From an uncultured Gammaproteobacteria bacterium (GTDB lineage Bacteria > Pseudomonadota > Gammaproteobacteria > SZUA-229): DNA of 34,635 bases. The position numbers were made by a program, and so were the translations under genes. Below, piece by piece: positions 26,171 to 34,635 of this stretch (the stretch's first letter is position 1; every line of letters begins with the position of its first letter). The notes beneath the pieces are model-generated. The model had not been told where the DNA came from. It searched no databases and worked only from the letters and a program-made list of their open reading frames with translations. The stretch spans positions 1 to 34,635 of the forward strand of contig CAJXZZ010000027.1 of assembly GCA_913065105.1 (NCBI GenBank), read 5' to 3'.

Positions 26171-26376
26171 AGCAGCTAACTGCTTTCACGCAAACCAAGA
26201 CCCTCAAACAGATCCTTTTTTTCATTGATGGCTTGTGTCATATGGTCACGAACAGCCAGCACGCGTGCTGTTCGTTTCAGATCGGGATGTAATAACACCC
26301 AGAGCCCAAGATTATAAGCAGGATCTGGATCACCATAACGTTCAAGCAGGATATTGAATGCCAGCCTCCGCAGGCA
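26171..26376 (-). pseudogene. C-terminal ~68-aa remnant of a LysR-family transcriptional regulator
   Basis: Minus-strand translation …LAFNILLERYGDPDPAYNLGLWVLLHPDLKRTARVLAVRDHMTQAINEKKDLFEGLGLRESS* resembles a LysR-type C-terminus. An in-frame TAA lies immediately upstream and no N-terminal HTH part is present. Confidence 0.5.
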
Positions 26377-28963: not shown

Positions 28964-29032
28964 ACTTAACGTTCGAGTTGAGGCGCGCTGGCGCGTTTTT
29001 TGCCTGCGTCACTCTCGAACGATTTGTTAAGC
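28964..29032 (-). mobile_element. attC-like site (a), ~69 bp, between the 4-TM cassette ORF and the CLCA-like gene
   Basis: In ORF sense: GCTTAAC (contains the ORF's TAA stop) … imperfect palindrome (gttcgag / ctcgaac arms) … GTTAAGT. Matches RYYYAAC … GTTRRRY. Confidence 0.6.
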
Positions 29033-29452
29033 GTCATGCTTAAGATAAACTCTTTGTAATATTTGTCGCACCAACTGCCTCATAATTTCAATTAGAACGA
29101 ATGCCGCGGTTACTACTTCAAACAGGATCGTCGAATTCATTGCTACCGTATGCTCTGATAATGGAGCAAGCACATAATGTCCAAGGCTGTCGACACCCAG
29201 CGCAGCATATATAGCCAAAATCAATAGGCCCACAATGTTATACCTGGAATTTGCAAGAATCCACCCGAATACTCCTACGATCGTCAGTCCGACCCAAGCG
29301 AAATATACACCTATACGCGTCCACGATGTTGGTAGGCTTGGATAATCCGAGAGGAACTCGGCATTGTGGACAAAATGTATAAGGCTTGCCGTCCCATAAA
29401 TGAGAAGTAAGATAAGAAGTATTTTCTGTGCTGGTCTACGCATCTTTAACAT
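29027..29452 (-). CDS. Cassette ORF: 4-TM small membrane protein (141 aa)
   Basis: Four hydrophobic helices. The ATG lies 10 nt after the GTTAGGC core of the upstream attC. Confidence 0.65.
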   Translation of the reverse strand: MLKMRRPAQKILLILLLIYGTASLIHFVHNAEFLSDYPSLPTSWTRIGVYFAWVGLTIVGVFGWILANSRYNIVGLLILAIYAALGVDSLGHYVLAPLSEHTVAMNSTILFEVVTAAFVLIEIMRQLVRQILQRVYLKHDA

Positions 29453-29461
29453 AGCTTCCGA

Positions 29462-29526
29462 CGCCTAACGTTTAAGTTAAGAGGCGCGACGCTTTTTCCG
29501 CGTCACGCTTAAACGCATTGTTATGC
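29462..29526 (-). mobile_element. attC-like site (b), ~64 bp
   Basis: In ORF sense: GCATAAC … aatgcgtttaagcgtgacgcgg aaaaa gcgtcgcgcctcttaacttaaac … GTTAGGC. Imperfect palindrome. Confidence 0.6.
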
Positions 29527-29532
29527 GCTTTT

Positions 29533-30012
29533 TTAGTGTTGATGTTCGTCACTTTTAATTTGGAGTGCGAAGGATGGAAATTTTTTTGTCGCATATATAC
29601 TATGACAACTTACGCAAGTTTCGCCCATTTTTGCAAAGTAAAAGCCAATTAACTCAGTTTTTTTCATTTCCGATGCATGAGATAGCATGCCTGAATAATA
29701 ATGAAATTTTTCATCTAGTTCTAAAAAACCCTTAGGTAACTTTGAATGCAGTTCATGCATTTGATTCTTGGACAGGTTTTGTCTTAGTACATAGCTGTTT
29801 TCCATTTTTTTTGCTATTGGCACTATGCTGCCCCACTGACCTGATATGTATGCATTCATAATTTCTTGCATGCCCAGGTTCAGTTGAACCATTTCTTTTG
29901 AAAACAATTGTTGTAACTCAGGTGATAGTGAAGAAACGCCAACATTATGATTATCGGCATGACAAATAGGCAATAAAATAAATAATGATAATGCAACTAC
30001 TAATTTTTTCAT
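29533..30012 (-). CDS. Cassette ORF: secreted protein with C-terminal CxxCH (cytochrome c'-like candidate)
   Basis: Signal peptide MKKLVVALSLFILLPICHA. Single heme-binding-type motif ETCVSCHSIY near the C-terminus, the arrangement of class II cytochromes c. Confidence 0.55.
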   Translation of the reverse strand: MKKLVVALSLFILLPICHADNHNVGVSSLSPELQQLFSKEMVQLNLGMQEIMNAYISGQWGSIVPIAKKMENSYVLRQNLSKNQMHELHSKLPKGFLELDEKFHYYSGMLSHASEMKKTELIGFYFAKMGETCVSCHSIYATKKFPSFALQIKSDEHQH

Positions 30013-30034
30013 TTTGTACTCGTTTTATTTATGT

Positions 30035-30097
30035 GTATAACGATTTGGGTAAGGCGCGCGACGCTTTTTCGCGACGCACTTGACCCGCTTGTTAGGC
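30035..30097 (-). mobile_element. attC-like site (c), ~63 bp
   Basis: In ORF sense: GCCTAAC (contains the TAA stop of the SnoaL-like ORF) … CGGGTcAAGTGCG…CGCGCCTTACCCA imperfect palindrome with an unpaired base … GTTATAC. Confidence 0.6.
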
Positions 30098-30493
30098 ATT
30101 TTTTTGCAATAGCTCGACACCATATGAATTATCAATTGCACATAGCCATTTTCCGTTGTCGTCTTTGACATATACATAGATGGCATCACGCTCTGTTGAA
30201 TATTCTGAATCAAGTTTCTCGGGAGATTTTACAAATGTTTTGGCAAGAACCAAAGCAGTATTACCAGCTTCGATTATAACCATTCCCCCTTGTGACACTT
30301 CTAAGCTGCCATTGAAATACTCAGATATTCTTTTATGCGCCTCTTTAATGTCACTACGACCATATGCTAAGAGGCCAGGTCTTACAACTAAGGTAGCCTC
30401 ATTTGTGTAAAACTTTGCCACTGCATCAAAGTCTTTATTATTGATAGCTTGGTCAGCTGCATGTATTTCTTGTTTTAATGCTTGATGGTTCAT
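30092..30493 (-). CDS. Cassette ORF: SnoaL-like / NTF2-fold protein (DUF4440-like), ~133 aa
   Basis: Start at MNHQALK (AAGGAGG RBS upstream); the track ORF extends further to 30538. Sequence pattern typical of small NTF2-like proteins. Confidence 0.7.
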   Translation of the reverse strand: MNHQALKQEIHAADQAINNKDFDAVAKFYTNEATLVVRPGLLAYGRSDIKEAHKRISEYFNGSLEVSQGGMVIIEAGNTALVLAKTFVKSPEKLDSEYSTERDAIYVYVKDDNGKWLCAIDNSYGVELLQKNA

Positions 30494-30536
30494 ATTGCCT
30501 CCTTTGGCTTTGGTTAAATACCCCGGAGGCAGAAAC

Positions 30537-30563
30537 AAAAAACCCGCCTCTAGGGCGGGTTTT
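30537..30563 (-). terminator. Strong intrinsic terminator hairpin ~45 nt upstream of the SnoaL-like start codon, in cassette sense
   Basis: Minus sense: AAAACCCGCC-ctaga-GGCGGGTTTTTTGTTT. Confidence 0.6.
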
Positions 30564-30579
30564 AGATACTAATCAGACA

Positions 30580-30645
30580 CTAGCAAACCCACCACTCTCT
30601 TCGAATGATAATAATTTGCTGTAAGGTGGCTGCTTGTCTTTTCAT
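30580..30645 (-). promoter_or_regulatory. Putative 21-codon leader ORF (MKRQAATLQQIIIIRREWWVC) ending 17 nt before the terminator; candidate Ile-sensing attenuator
   Basis: Four consecutive Ile codons (att att atc att), a stop, then the terminator. A TTGACA-like -35 lies upstream at ~30673. Confidence 0.3.
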
Positions 30646-30691
30646 AGTTTAAATACTGGATCATTGATGAAGATGTGTCAATACTTAATTT

Positions 30692-30754
30692 GCCTAAAGT
30701 TCGAGTTAAGTGGCCGTAGCGAAGCGAAGGTCACACTTGAATGACTTGTTAGGC
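30692..30754 (-). mobile_element. attC-like site (d), ~63 bp
   Basis: In ORF sense: GCCTAAC (TAA stop of the second 4-TM ORF inside) … imperfect palindrome with an unpaired base … TTTAGGC. Confidence 0.6.
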
Positions 30755-31144
30755 ATCTGGCTTGAAACCGTCGAATTTATTACTACGACATAACCACCAA
30801 AACCCAGCAAACAGAGCGAACCATACTACGGTTCGTAAAGACATAGCGCGAAGACTGTCAACAGCAATTGAGTTACCTTCTGTGTACAGAAAGAAGATTG
30901 CTGTCAGCACGATGAGATTGAGAACGAATATAGCAGCTGCCACATACATGCCTTGTTTGATGTTTCGCCATGCGATGATACCTGCTGCGACATACACAAT
31001 ACCCATTGCTGCGTTATAGATTAGCAGCGGTCGGAAAACGATGTATCCCGGATTTGACCCGAGAAGGACACGAGTGCCTGCAAAAATGGTTAAAAGACCA
31101 AATAATACAGCTACGGTTACCAATATGTTCTGGGTGATTTTCAT
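30749..31144 (-). CDS. Cassette ORF: 4-TM small membrane protein (131 aa), possibly paralogous to 29027..29452
   Basis: Similar size and topology and weak sequence resemblance to the other 4-TM cassette protein. Confidence 0.65.
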   Translation of the reverse strand: MKITQNILVTVAVLFGLLTIFAGTRVLLGSNPGYIVFRPLLIYNAAMGIVYVAAGIIAWRNIKQGMYVAAAIFVLNLIVLTAIFFLYTEGNSIAVDSLRAMSLRTVVWFALFAGFWWLCRSNKFDGFKPDA

Positions 31145-31182
31145 TTATCAAAGTATCTATTGAGCTTTCTATTCATTAAGGT

Positions 31183-31257
31183 GCCTAACGTCACGCATAA
31201 CCGGGAATTTGTTAAGCGAAGCGTAACAAATTATCCGCGTTAATGTACTTGTTTGGC
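31183..31257 (-). mobile_element. attC-like site (e), ~75 bp
   Basis: In ORF sense: GCCAAAC … CGGATAATTTGTTACGC tt CGCTTAACAAATTCCCG (17-bp inverted arms) … GTTAGGC. Confidence 0.6.
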
Positions 31258-31258
31258 A

Positions 31259-31813
31259 TTATTTTATGCCTTTAGTTGGATTGGATATTGTTGGTTTAAT
31301 ATAATTGTTTGTCCAGCACTTATTGAAATTAACTGTTGCCTCATGAAATGATGGTATATCTTTACCATACATAGAGAATGCAATTTTATTTGTACAGTGT
31401 CTTTTAGGTGCTCGACGATTTACGCCAAGCCTGATATTAATAATGCCTTCGCCTGTTTCCATTTTTGAAGGCTGCACACTATAGCTCATGCTTCTTACGC
31501 CATTATCTAATGTATATGCACTTAACCAAGTTTGGCTTTTATTGTATTTCCCGTCGTAAAAGTATTTTACCGCTAGCGTAATGTAACTATCATTTTGTTC
31601 GGTTACTTCCCAAGATATTATTCTTGTCTCGTCTGTTTTAGTGGCAGGTGTACTATTAATAAAAATCGGCTCTTTTAGCTTAATTATTTTTACATTATCA
31701 GTATCTGGTTTGGCATCACTATAATTTATAGAGCCATTACTATCTACCCACTGGTAAATTTCAGCCGAACAAATTGGCGTTATGAATATAAGTAGTAGAA
31801 GAAAATATTTCAT
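31259..31813 (-). CDS. Cassette ORF: secreted DUF4124-domain protein (184 aa)
   Basis: Signal peptide MKYFLLLLIFITPICSA followed by EIYQWVDSNGSINYSD (hallmark YxWVDxxGxxxYSD of DUF4124). Confidence 0.7.
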   Translation of the reverse strand: MKYFLLLLIFITPICSAEIYQWVDSNGSINYSDAKPDTDNVKIIKLKEPIFINSTPATKTDETRIISWEVTEQNDSYITLAVKYFYDGKYNKSQTWLSAYTLDNGVRSMSYSVQPSKMETGEGIINIRLGVNRRAPKRHCTNKIAFSMYGKDIPSFHEATVNFNKCWTNNYIKPTISNPTKGIK

Positions 31814-31823
31814 ATTTTTATTT

Positions 31824-31908
31824 ACCTAACATTTAAAATAAGGGGTCGCCGCTTTTTGGCGGACCCTGCCCGTTTACTTTGCGGACGATCTTGATTGACT
31901 TGTTATGT
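31824..31908 (-). mobile_element. attC-like site (f), ~85 bp
   Basis: In ORF sense: ACATAAC … GGGTCCGCC aaaaa GCGGCGACCCC palindrome … GTTAGGT, then 10 nt to the ATG of the DUF4124 ORF. Confidence 0.55.
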
Positions 31909-31935
31909 ATTTAATTTTTGTGATCATTCTTCGAA

Positions 31936-32131
31936 TCATTCTACGGGTAACTGCACTTTAGAAAACTCAAAATTTTGAAGCCCTTCAAGTTTGTAAGTAT
32001 TTACTAAATATAGATCCCTCTGTGCATCAACATCTGCAGCAATATCTAATACCACCTTGTCAACAGACTGATCCTTAGGCAGTTTCTTAGCGCATCCCTC
32101 TGTATAAATAGGCAATTCTCAATGTAGGCAT
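31936..32131 (-). other. Small cassette-like ORF, ~59 aa from a TTG start, or a 64-aa protein interrupted by a 1-nt frameshift after an upstream ATG
   Basis: Minus-sense atgcctacattgaga(a)ttgcct… Frame a: MPTLRIAYLYRGMR*. Frame c: …(L)PIYTEGCAKKLPKDQSVDKVVLDIAADVDAQRDLYLVNTYKLEGLQNFEFSKVQLPVE*. Removing one A would fuse the two. Confidence 0.3.
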
Positions 32132-32286
32132 TTTTTTGTTTTAATTAGATAGCTTAATCTTCAGCCATCTTAGCAACCGCTCCCACCATGATAAAGGTGG
32201 TTCTGGTTGAGTAAATTCTGTTACCCAGATAATTCGCCGGAAAAATGCATCATCAATATTTGATTTTACGGTGCCGTAGAATTAAT

Positions 32287-32500
32287 AGCGGGCAGGCTCG
32301 ATTTTTTAAAGAATAATTGGGGTCAGAGTCGATTTATTCTATCAAAAGCAGCGATTAAATTAATTGGGGTCAGAGAACAATTGTTTCTAATATAGGTTTG
32401 TATCTAATCAAAGTGGGCAGGTCTTGATCCGTGCGTTAATAAAAATCGGGGTCAAGTCTTGAATTGTGAATTTAGTTTTATTGAGTGGGTCTCAGATCCC
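32287..32500. repeat. Cluster of five or six imperfect direct repeats containing GGGGTCAG / GGGCAGG (e.g. AATTGGGGTCAGAGTCGATTT, AATTGGGGTCAGAGAACAATTG, AATCGGGGTCAAGTCTTGAATTG)
   Basis: Copies at ~32287, 32315, 32362, 32413, 32445, 32484. No ORF of at least 60 aa on either strand. Confidence 0.5.
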
Positions 32501-32526
32501 TCTTTATTTAAAATGGAAAAGATAAA

Positions 32527-32787
32527 GTGATTAAACTGTTTGAAAGTATTGCGAAAATAATTCGGTTTGTTAAGACCCTTGTTTACGTGTTCATAACAAT
32601 GTTATTGCTGACTGCGATGTTTGGCTACTCGTATTTATCAGTTTATCTTATGTCCTTTGTCTTAATTGGAATTATGTTGGGTGTAGGATTTTTGATTATA
32701 GATTATATGTTTTCCCCAAGAGTAGGCGTTAACGGTGAAACGCTCCCGAGCAGAGTGAGGTCCAGCGCTGCTTCGAGTATTGATTAA
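32527..32787 (+). CDS. Small two-TM membrane protein (86 aa, GTG start)
   Basis: Two long hydrophobic helices. No family recognised. Confidence 0.45.
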   Translation: MIKLFESIAKIIRFVKTLVYVFITMLLLTAMFGYSYLSVYLMSFVLIGIMLGVGFLIIDYMFSPRVGVNGETLPSRVRSSAASSID

Positions 32788-32805
32788 AGGGGTCAGACCC
32801 CTTTT
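32786..32805. terminator. Perfect palindrome AAAGGGGTC-a-GACCCCTTTT (terminator-like; member of the GGGGTCAG repeat family)
   Basis: 20-bp palindrome immediately after the small membrane ORF stop. The track ORF 32780..33766 (TTG start) reads through it, so the true start of the next gene is downstream. Confidence 0.5.
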
Positions 32806-32877
32806 CAACTTCACGGCCATTGGGTGGATGTGGAAATACCCCGATCATTTGAGACAAAGCGCTTCAGGCGGTAACGA

Positions 32878-33766
32878 CATGTCTGGCAGACTACATTATT
32901 TTTTCTCATCGTTTTTTCTATGCCTTTGCATTAATTCTGCCAATGCAGATACGTTGATGCCCTTTGCTGATGCTCATATTCATTACAATTGGGATCACGC
33001 TGAAATCATTTCCGTGCAAGCGGTCGTCGAGAAACTGAAGAAAGAAAAGGTAGGTCTTACTCTGGTGTCCAGCACCCCCAGCCATTTGGCGCTTGAGCTT
33101 AGGCAGGCCGGAGGCGATTGGGTCATTCCCTTTTTTAGCCCCTATATCCATGAGTTAGGTAAGCGCGATTGGTATCTCGATAAGTCGGTTGTTAAAAAAG
33201 CGGCGGAAGGATTAGATCAGGGGCTTTATTTTGGCGTTGGAGAAATCCATTTTATGGCCGGGTTTCTGCCCAGGCCGGACAATGTCGTTTTTCTCCAGCT
33301 TATGGACTTGGCCAGGCAACATAATGTGCCGGCGCTTATTCACGTAGACGCGGCCGATGAAAGCTATTTTCTCGGTATCTGCAAAGCCCACTCGGCGGTA
33401 AAAATGATCTTCGCTCATGCGGGTGGAAATCTTAAGCCGCATCACATCAGATCTGTTCTTGAGCAGTGCCCTAATGTTTGGGTCGACTTTGCTGCACGGG
33501 ATGATTGGCGTTATGGTGGTTTGACTGACGGCAAGGGCATTTTGTTGCCAGCATGGAAGCGATTAGTGTTGGATTTTTCGGGTCGCTTTATTACCGGTAC
33601 CGACCCGGTATGGCAGGTGACGCGCACTCAGAGTTGGGATGAGCCCGATGATGGCTGGGATCACTACAAACAGTTGCACCAGTACCATCAAACGTGGCTG
33701 GCAGATTTGCCCGATGAGGTGCACAAAAAAATTGCCTGGGATAATGTCAGGCAACTCATTAATTAA
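32878..33766 (+). CDS. Secreted amidohydrolase-2 (TIM-barrel metal-dependent hydrolase) family protein
   Basis: Start at MSGRLHYFFSSFFLCLCINSANA (signal). FADAHIHY, HVDAAD, FAHAGG, VDFAARDD and TGTDP resemble the metal ligands of amidohydrolase_2 proteins. Confidence 0.7.
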
Positions 33767-33847
33767 TTGGGGTCTATTTTCTTGGTATTGTAAGCCTCTG
33801 TCGAAGTTTAGCTTTCAATTTAATAATAGTGGTAGAAGGTTGTAAGT

Positions 33848-34111
33848 ATGAATGATAAACGTAAGCATGAAAGGGTTCCGTTTACGACGGATATAAAAAT
33901 ATCCCACCCGACTATTGGCGAGAAAATCGTTAAAACTAAGGATGTTTCTGATAGTGGTGTTTTTATACTTGTTGAGCCAACTGAAATGCCGCCAATCGGT
34001 GAAGTTGTTGAAGGCCAGGTTCAGGGAGGGGAGGGTGAGATGCCAGTGTTGAAAATGAGAATCGTAAGAGTGGTAGGTGATGGCTTGGGTTTGCAGTTTG
34101 TGGATGTTTAG
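33848..34111 (+). CDS. PilZ-domain protein (c-di-GMP binding), 87 aa
   Basis: RKHERVPF (RxxxR) and DVSDSGVFI (DxSxxG) motifs. Confidence 0.75.
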   Translation: MNDKRKHERVPFTTDIKISHPTIGEKIVKTKDVSDSGVFILVEPTEMPPIGEVVEGQVQGGEGEMPVLKMRIVRVVGDGLGLQFVDV

Positions 34112-34126
34112 AAATTAATGAAAATT

Positions 34127-34148
34127 AAAGGGGTCAGCCCCCTTTTTA
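34127..34148. terminator. Terminator-like palindrome AAAGGGGTCAGCCCCCTTTTT (GGGGTCAG family)
   Basis: Follows the PilZ-gene stop. Similar copies at 32786 and 33759 (TTAATTAATTGGGGTCT). Confidence 0.4.
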
Positions 34149-34159
34149 AAGCATATTTA

Positions 34160-34635
34160 ATGATGACCGGGAAAGCTGCGTGTGTAAGATTTATAGGAAT
34201 GCCGTTGCTTGTGTTGTGCGCGGTTTTTTTATCAGGCTGCGGTGAGAGCCTCTCTCCGGAAGATCAGGTGCGAAAATATTTGGCTACTGTAGTGGCAGCC
34301 GTTGAGGCGCGTGATGTGTTGGCTGTTCGAGAAGTTGTTTCTGATAACTATAAGGATGATGCTAGCAGGACGAGGCGAGATTTGTTGAGGTTGGTTACGG
34401 GATATTTTTTACGCCACAAAAATATCTACCTTTTTAGTCAGGTGGACGAGATTAATTTTCCAGAGGTGGGTCAGTCGAGGGTAAAAATATTCGTTGCCAT
34501 GGCAGGCTCACCAATGACAGGCGCTGAGGCATTGCTTGATTTTAAAGCCGATCTTTATGAGTTTGATTTAACCTTGCAGCAAGAGGGTGGCGTGTGGCAT
34601 CTGACGAAGGCACGCTGGCAGTGGGCTGCCATTGA
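34160..34635 (+). CDS. Partial CDS (runs off the window's 3' end): lipoprotein
   Basis: MMTGKAACVRFIGMPLLVLCAVFLSGCGE… with an LSGC lipobox. No stop before the window end. Confidence 0.55.
   Translation, partial: MMTGKAACVRFIGMPLLVLCAVFLSGCGESLSPEDQVRKYLATVVAAVEARDVLAVREVVSDNYKDDASRTRRDLLRLVTGYFLRHKNIYLFSQVDEINFPEVGQSRVKIFVAMAGSPMTGAEALLDFKADLYEFDLTLQQEGGVWHLTKARWQWAAI

Follow-up and report, generated by a model that had tools for sequence, protein, structure and literature searches.

The contig analysed here (GenBank assembly GCA_913065105.1, contig CAJXZZ010000027.1, forward strand; from an uncultured Gammaproteobacteria bacterium of the SZUA-229 lineage), hereafter the window, very probably carries an integron-type gene-cassette array without an integrase gene, operationally a CALIN (attC sites in a cluster devoid of an integron-integrase), with the 4-kb rule that enters into the definition of such clusters being only partly checkable on the right side of the array. 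The window covers the full contig of 34,635 bp, with 29 kb visible to the left of the array and 2.7 kb to the right. Six imperfect palindromes of 63–85 nt, situated between positions 28964 and 31908, separate five complete open reading frames (ORFs) of the minus strand, encoding 141, 159, 133/148, 131, and 184 aa, and a 59-aa ORF lies upstream of the sixth palindrome (S6). The array is thus composed of five complete cassettes, each with a gene and its own attC site, and one truncated upstream unit, all on the minus strand (Table 1), with the six sites spaced at ~0.5–0.66 kb. An initial annotation of the window, made from the sequence alone, had already proposed a CALIN-like cassette array, and this proposal is supported as far as the contig shows.

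Architecture of the attC sites

Read on the minus strand, each site follows the order R'', a 5-nt spacer (mostly AAGnn), L'' of the pattern nnT[C]AAG[N], and, beyond the central part, L', a 6-nt spacer, and R'. The initial annotation had placed RYYYAAC/GTTRRRY cores at all cassette boundaries, which holds for most of the cores but not for R' of site S4, which reads TTTAGGC and not GTTRRRY. R'' conforms exactly to RYYYAAC in four of the six sites, those of S5 (GCCAAAC) and S6 (ACATAAC) having one mismatch each, and GTT is present in the R' core of five of the six, S4 being the exception. When a hand-defined structure consisting of the R and L boxes (16 pairs) was scored on the six-site alignment, the proposed partners were paired in 87.5% of the cells, as against 19–45% when the 3' partner was shifted by 1–3 columns; both sides had changed in 8 of the 16 pairs, and the observed covariation score was matched by none of 500 shuffles. 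The L box taken separately is 89% paired, with compensatory changes in six of its nine pairs.

Asymmetrically placed extrahelical bases are what give attC sites their polarity. The unpaired extra bases that had been noticed on the inner arms of the palindromes were borne out by the alignment, in which, as is canonical for attC, columns 18 and 22 of the 5' (R''–L'') minus-strand arm remain unpaired; a C occupies column 18 in four of the six sites, corresponding to G on the bottom strand. As all the unpaired bases belong to the 5' arm when the minus strand is read, this strand is assigned as the top strand, the same as that of the ORFs. Folding of the plus (bottom) strands as single-stranded DNA gave z-scores of −1.5 to −3.6, which are modest but consistent. 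A comparison by inspection of each R'' with the 5' TTRRRY of its own cassette was set aside as mixed, the match being perfect for cassettes 3 and 4 and uninformative for the rest.

Relationship to known attC sites

The identity of the sites as attC was tested in reverse, that is, a covariance model trained on the window's six sites alone (R1), together with a broadened version of it (R2), was searched against attC sites of known integrons. The reference used was the 60-nt attC of aadA1; this sequence has matches of ≥99% identity in 1,962 plasmid records, R100 among them, where it follows aadA1 directly, and the query was 100% identical in every record among the matches listed. R1 detected the aadA1 attC of R100/In2 on the correct strand with 46.8 bits (E 8.5e-9), as its sole match within two class 1 integron regions totalling 22 kb. 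It also matched the attC adjoining a genuine intI gene in L004, a Thiotrichaceae metagenome-assembled genome (MAG; comparison loci are designated by L numbers), and R2 found the second attC of the same integron. The L004 IntI is a 337-aa protein with 47% identity over 321 residues to IntI1, including the IntI-specific insertion, the IntI1 query itself being 100% identical to the annotated R100 protein. A search with attC covariance models had been suggested as a check on the annotation, and in this reciprocal form it speaks in its favour; together with the R''/L''/L'/R' layout and the covariation, it confirms the six attC-like sites at the positions first assigned to them.

The likeness to the aadA1 attC is close in several respects. 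The layout of the latter, GYCTAAC-AAnTC-nTTCAAG...CTTAAC-TCnAnC-GTTAG, is nearly the same as that of the window sites, the 5-nt and 6-nt spacers and the L'' pattern agree, the length is similar (60 nt vs 63–85 nt), and the start of the site coincides with the cassette gene's stop codon. The central loop sequences are different, and, in contrast to the aadA1 system, the window cassettes are free of resistance genes and belong to the chromosome of an uncultured gammaproteobacterium.

Within the 34.6-kb window, R1 found the six sites only, the next matches having E values of 0.6–1.5; having no other copy there, the element is not a dispersed repeat. In ~0.65 Mb of other loci, matches of the attC model occurred in cassette-like contexts only. 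The possibility, raised with the initial annotation, that such palindromes occur generically between genes was accordingly answered in favour of the array.

Recurrence of single cassettes in other contexts

Cassette mobility was examined by exact-sequence look-ups of the cassette proteins, followed by nucleotide comparison of the contigs. The cassette proteins have relatives of ≥90% identity on other contigs, and in the nucleotide comparison the blocks of homology correspond to single cassettes: cassettes 2, 3, 4, and 5 recur at 89–99% nucleotide identity in metagenomic contigs with other neighbours, and most of the homology breakpoints, where the junctions are readable, coincide with the G|TT crossover in R' cores. 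Cassette 4 (30695–31190) is ~99% identical in L066 and L067, in which another attC lies upstream and another cassette (Imm33/DUF2314) downstream; these two contigs part from the window at G|TTAGGC on the upstream side and at the R' core on the downstream side. It is also found at 92–97% identity in L056 and L059–L065. Cassette 3 (30037–30697) is 96.4% identical in L070–L073, where it stands elsewhere as a lone cassette with junctions at R' cores, and 91.8% identical in L069, there with another attC. Cassette 5 (31186–31832), 90.9% identical in L055, is again a lone cassette elsewhere, bounded at cores, and cassette 2 (29495–30035) is 89.5% identical in L058 in a different context. Cassette 1 was seen in the same context only (L057). 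Invariance of the locus between strains had been named as a point on which the annotation should be judged; the locus is not invariant, identical copies of cassette 4 having three upstream and two downstream neighbours across metagenomes, with the junctions at R' cores.

Judged from these comparisons, the pattern of recurrence is that expected from IntI-mediated excision and insertion, and the ~99% identity of cassette 4 across contexts implies that the shuffling is recent. An apparent divergence at the S2 core in L057, a 99.6% identical strain, was dismissed, the remainder of that contig consisting of Ns and being uninformative on variation.

In L059 (10396–11448), and likewise in L060–L065, the homology to cassette 4 stops at the R'' core (GCCTAAC), and in L059 an IS110-family transposase gene (PF02371) is located ~0.3 kb downstream of the cassette 4 ORF. 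Insertion sequences of the IS1111-attC group target attC sites, and the arrangement in L059 is reminiscent of that group.

Lack of an integrase gene and classification of the array

The earlier statement that the window has no tyrosine recombinase, including on the attI-proximal right-hand side, is borne out: a Pfam scan of all window ORFs of ≥100 aa yielded no PF00589 domain, and six-frame tblastn of the window with IntI1 and the L004 IntI revealed no intI gene or fragment (best E 0.06). Since the cassettes are on the minus strand, attI and intI would be expected just to the right of the array, and that position is occupied by REP-like (repetitive extragenic palindromic) repeats and the genes for an 86-aa membrane protein, an amidohydrolase, and a PilZ protein. 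Because the window is the whole contig, the lack of an integrase applies to the contig and not to the genome.

A CALIN is defined as ≥2 attC sites on one strand, <4 kb apart, with no nearby intI, and CALINs contain five sites on average (Cury et al. 2016, PMC4889954). The window has six minus-strand attC sites, all <4 kb apart and with no intI in the visible flanks, a number close to that average, and its cargo is also CALIN-like in being of unknown function without resistance genes; the combination of intI and an attI by the first cassette, which makes a complete integron, is not present. Differences from a CALIN are not essential, consisting of the 2.7-kb length of the visible attI flank, the S4 site without the crossover G, and the truncated upstream end. 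Several points weigh against the classification: the 2.7 kb on the attI side is shorter than the 4 kb of the rule, so that intI could lie just past the end of the contig or at some other place; neither an attI nor a Pc promoter was identified in the window; promoter-like matches (17) are not enriched over those in shuffled sequence (12.4 ± 3.7); and the fold z-scores of S2 and S6 are weak (−1.5). Overall, the array is real but ordinary, CALINs being well known in environmental Gammaproteobacteria.

Possible origins of the array

The array may be half of an integron that a rearrangement has split, or a set of cassettes placed at a secondary site by an IntI encoded elsewhere in the genome, and may still be actively serviced by that enzyme, a view that we consider quite possible, although at somewhat below an even chance. 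The evidence of recent shuffling favours it, in that the cassette neighbours differ between ~99% identical contigs, implying recent IntI activity in the population, and lone cassettes are present at non-att sites in relatives (L055 and L070–L073); in addition, about half of CALINs occur in genomes or replicons encoding IntI (Cury et al., PMC4889954). The presumably inactivating change in S4 and the seemingly truncated upstream end, on the contrary, point to some decay.

Alternatively, a sedentary chromosomal integron located beside the amidohydrolase gene may have decayed by deletion of intI and attI in situ, the cassettes not having moved in, which we regard as rather unlikely. The complete integron of L004 (intI and a minus-strand array) is situated 7 kb upstream of an orthologous amidohydrolase gene (58% identity) in the same relative orientation, attC-like sites or a cassette 4 homologue lie within ~1 kb of the amidohydrolase gene in several other distant relatives (L001, L020, L021, L025, L032, and L033), and the R''-like stub at 32124–32137 suggests an upstream truncation. 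Sedentary chromosomal integrons such as that of L004 also resemble the window array in the attC family, in the small promoterless cassettes with unknown functions, and in their orientation with respect to the amidohydrolase gene nearby, whereas the window array is short and has neither intI nor attI. However, no fragment of an intI pseudogene could be detected, the window has no counterpart of the genes that separate intI from the amidohydrolase gene in L004, the nearest relatives (L012, L013, and L015; 77–85% identity) have dissimilar, rearranged neighbourhoods without intI, and several of the supporting attC matches are borderline (E 0.008–0.12).

That the palindromes are instead generic REP-like elements or intrinsic terminators is hardly credible and effectively refuted, for although they are intergenic hairpins sited after stop codons, and a simple scan marks short terminator-like hairpins in S2, S5, and S6 (on the plus, non-coding strand only), no copies are found in the window outside the 3-kb array, the RYYYAAC/GTTRRRY cores show conservation, the asymmetric arms have bulged bases, R1 strongly matches the aadA1 attC, the inter-genome homology breakpoints lie at the cores, and a true REP-like family (GGGGTCAGAG...) nearby is quite different in look.

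Predicted mechanism of cassette movement and expression

The folding of attC sites, their recognition and cleavage by IntI, and the excision of cassettes are established integron biology. By analogy, the plus (bottom) strand of each attC site in the window would fold into a hairpin, which IntI, guided by the extrahelical bases as well as the R and L boxes, would recognize and cleave at AA|C (equivalent to G|TT on the top strand), so that single cassettes may be excised as circles and re-inserted elsewhere. As the contig has no intI and no recognizable attI, any current mobility must use IntI supplied in trans. The S4 site is predicted to be inactive because it has lost the crossover G: in the ~99% identical L066 and L067, the R' of S4 is GTTATCT, with the crossover G, whereas the window has T at 30698. 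This G-to-T change should block cleavage, so that cassettes 4 and 3 would become a single fused unit. The array would be expressed by read-through or from cassette-borne promoters, since no Pc was identified and promoter-like matches are not enriched.

The array is one more CALIN beside the hundreds already catalogued and changes little on its own. It is of value as a clean sequence-level case in which the same cassettes, ~99% identical and with G|TT at the junctions, are shuffled between contexts, the setting being an uncultured marine or sediment gammaproteobacterial community; such shuffling shows that integrase-less arrays exchange cassettes with the surrounding community. The population from which the window derives is present in JGI samples 3300011257 and 3300011260.

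A putative P9-family leader in cassette 3

A promoter, a leader, and a terminator of its own appear to be present in cassette 3. The match to the Rfam family P9 closes with a strong terminator, and the DUF4440 gene follows 45 nt downstream; in strain PAO1, P9 is found 44 nt ahead of a 405-bp gene on the same strand (PMC1524904). Further P9 copies are present in L070 (9873–9955) and L069 (10051–10132); in L069, a diverged copy is located in a second, unrelated cassette. Homologous copies of the leader differ by 3-nt indels inside the run of isoleucine (Ile) codons. Nothing on the function of P9 beyond the original listing was found in the literature. The cassette 3 RNA looks like an Ile leader-peptide attenuator rather than a trans-acting small RNA.

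We tentatively suggest, as a reading that is less likely than not, that the array is a live reservoir serviced in trans, in which cassette 3 is regulated by its own promoter, Ile leader peptide, and P9 terminator, with P9 being an Ile-sensing transcription attenuator that travels in integron cassettes and insulates the downstream cassettes from read-through. The P9 leader in cassette 3 offers a small lead for work on cassette expression.

Features and cargo of the array

Table 1. Positions of attC sites, cassettes, and associated elements in the window
Feature	Position	Strand	Description
attC site S1	28964–29032	−	R'' GCTTAAC, R' GTTAAGT; R1 76 bits; last site of the array
Cassette 1	28970–29468	−	141-aa membrane protein (29027–29452) and S1
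attC site S2	29463–29526	−	R'' GCATAAC, R' GTTAGGC
Cassette 2	29469–30040	−	159-aa secreted CxxCH protein (29533–30012) and S2
attC site S3	30035–30097	−	R'' GCCTAAC, R' GTTATAC
Cassette 3	30041–30697	−	133-aa DUF4440 protein (30092–30493) and S3, with leader elements upstream
P9-family RNA with terminator	30539–30618	−	Rfam RF00624 'Pseudomonas sRNA P9', 47.8 bits (gathering score 43)
Ile-rich leader ORF	30580–30645	−	MKRQAATLQQIIIIRREWWVC, then stop; run of Ile codons
TTGACA −35 box	30676–30681	−	Promoter-like, in cassette 3
attC site S4	30692–30754	−	R'' GCCTAAC, R' TTTAGGC; crossover G to T at 30698
Cassette 4	30698–31188	−	131-aa membrane protein (30749–31144) and S4
attC site S5	31183–31257	−	R'' GCCAAAC, R' GTTAGGC
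Cassette 5	31189–31829	−	184-aa secreted DUF4124 protein (31259–31813) and S5
attC site S6	31824–31908	−	R'' ACATAAC, R' GTTAGGT
Upstream remnant	31909–32137	−	59-aa ORF (31936–32115) and 14-nt R''-like fragment AAAAAAATGCCTAC (32124–32137)

Some details of the initial annotation were corrected by closer analysis. The two membrane proteins of 141 and 131 aa, described as related four-transmembrane proteins, have no detectable BLASTP similarity (E 2.3), and the TAA stop codon, said to lie inside the core in four of the five complete ORFs, does so in three (those of 141, 133/148, and 131 aa). The sixth unit, taken to be bounded by sites, has no recognizable site upstream of its 59-aa ORF, where the 14-nt R''-like remnant stands alone; an R1 search of 31900–34635 with the filters off found no further attC, and no attI or upstream attC is recognizable at the remnant. 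The DUF4440 and DUF4124 domains of the cargo were confirmed by the Pfam scan.

The gaps between the start codon and the upstream core are 10, 22, 198, 38, and 10 nt across the five ORFs. Site S1, after which a non-cassette VWA gene follows, is unchanged in sequence in the same-species contig L057. The cassette 1 protein belongs to a cluster of 11 members at ≥90% identity, the CxxCH protein has a sub-threshold match only to cytochrome c' (E 0.03), and a PADLOC search for anti-phage defence gave zero matches.

Surroundings of the array

To judge from the contigs compared, the amidohydrolase neighbourhood is a plasticity hot spot. Scans of genome and metagenome contigs with the amidohydrolase for flanking sequence returned only relatives of ≤68% identity, with no synteny. 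The arrays of small genes upstream of the amidohydrolase gene in L012 and L015 were considered as cassette arrays and rejected, a single attC being found in them (L015, 1316–1405); the repeat found in them (GGGGTCAGAG...) represents one arm of a palindrome of the REP-like kind and not an attC.

Besides the attC sites, a second repeat family, AATTGGGGTCAGAG(AACAATTGTTTCTAATAT...), is found in the window (32290–32500), in L012 (600–8900) and L015 (580–6650), and in L050, L031, and L004. Several of the window copies lie between the array and the 86-aa gene, and in the closest relatives the repeat trails many small same-strand genes upstream of the amidohydrolase gene. Since full copies (L050 and L031) are ~55-nt palindromic hairpins followed by a T-run, this repeat probably represents an element of REP-like or terminator type, specific to the lineage, and not a recombination site.

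Set against window positions 32775–34111, L012, the closest MAG (85% identity in the amidohydrolase), differs by an insertion of ~8.3 kb of small genes that separates the 86-aa gene from the amidohydrolase gene, and its PilZ gene is located on the opposite side of the latter. To the left of the array, a C-terminal fragment, LysR-like by eye, is located at 26180–26375 on the minus strand between the VWA gene and yaeQ. In the same-species L057, the segment 25831–26176 is replaced, and the segment 21239–22930, which in the window holds an SPFH/Band 7 gene, is absent.

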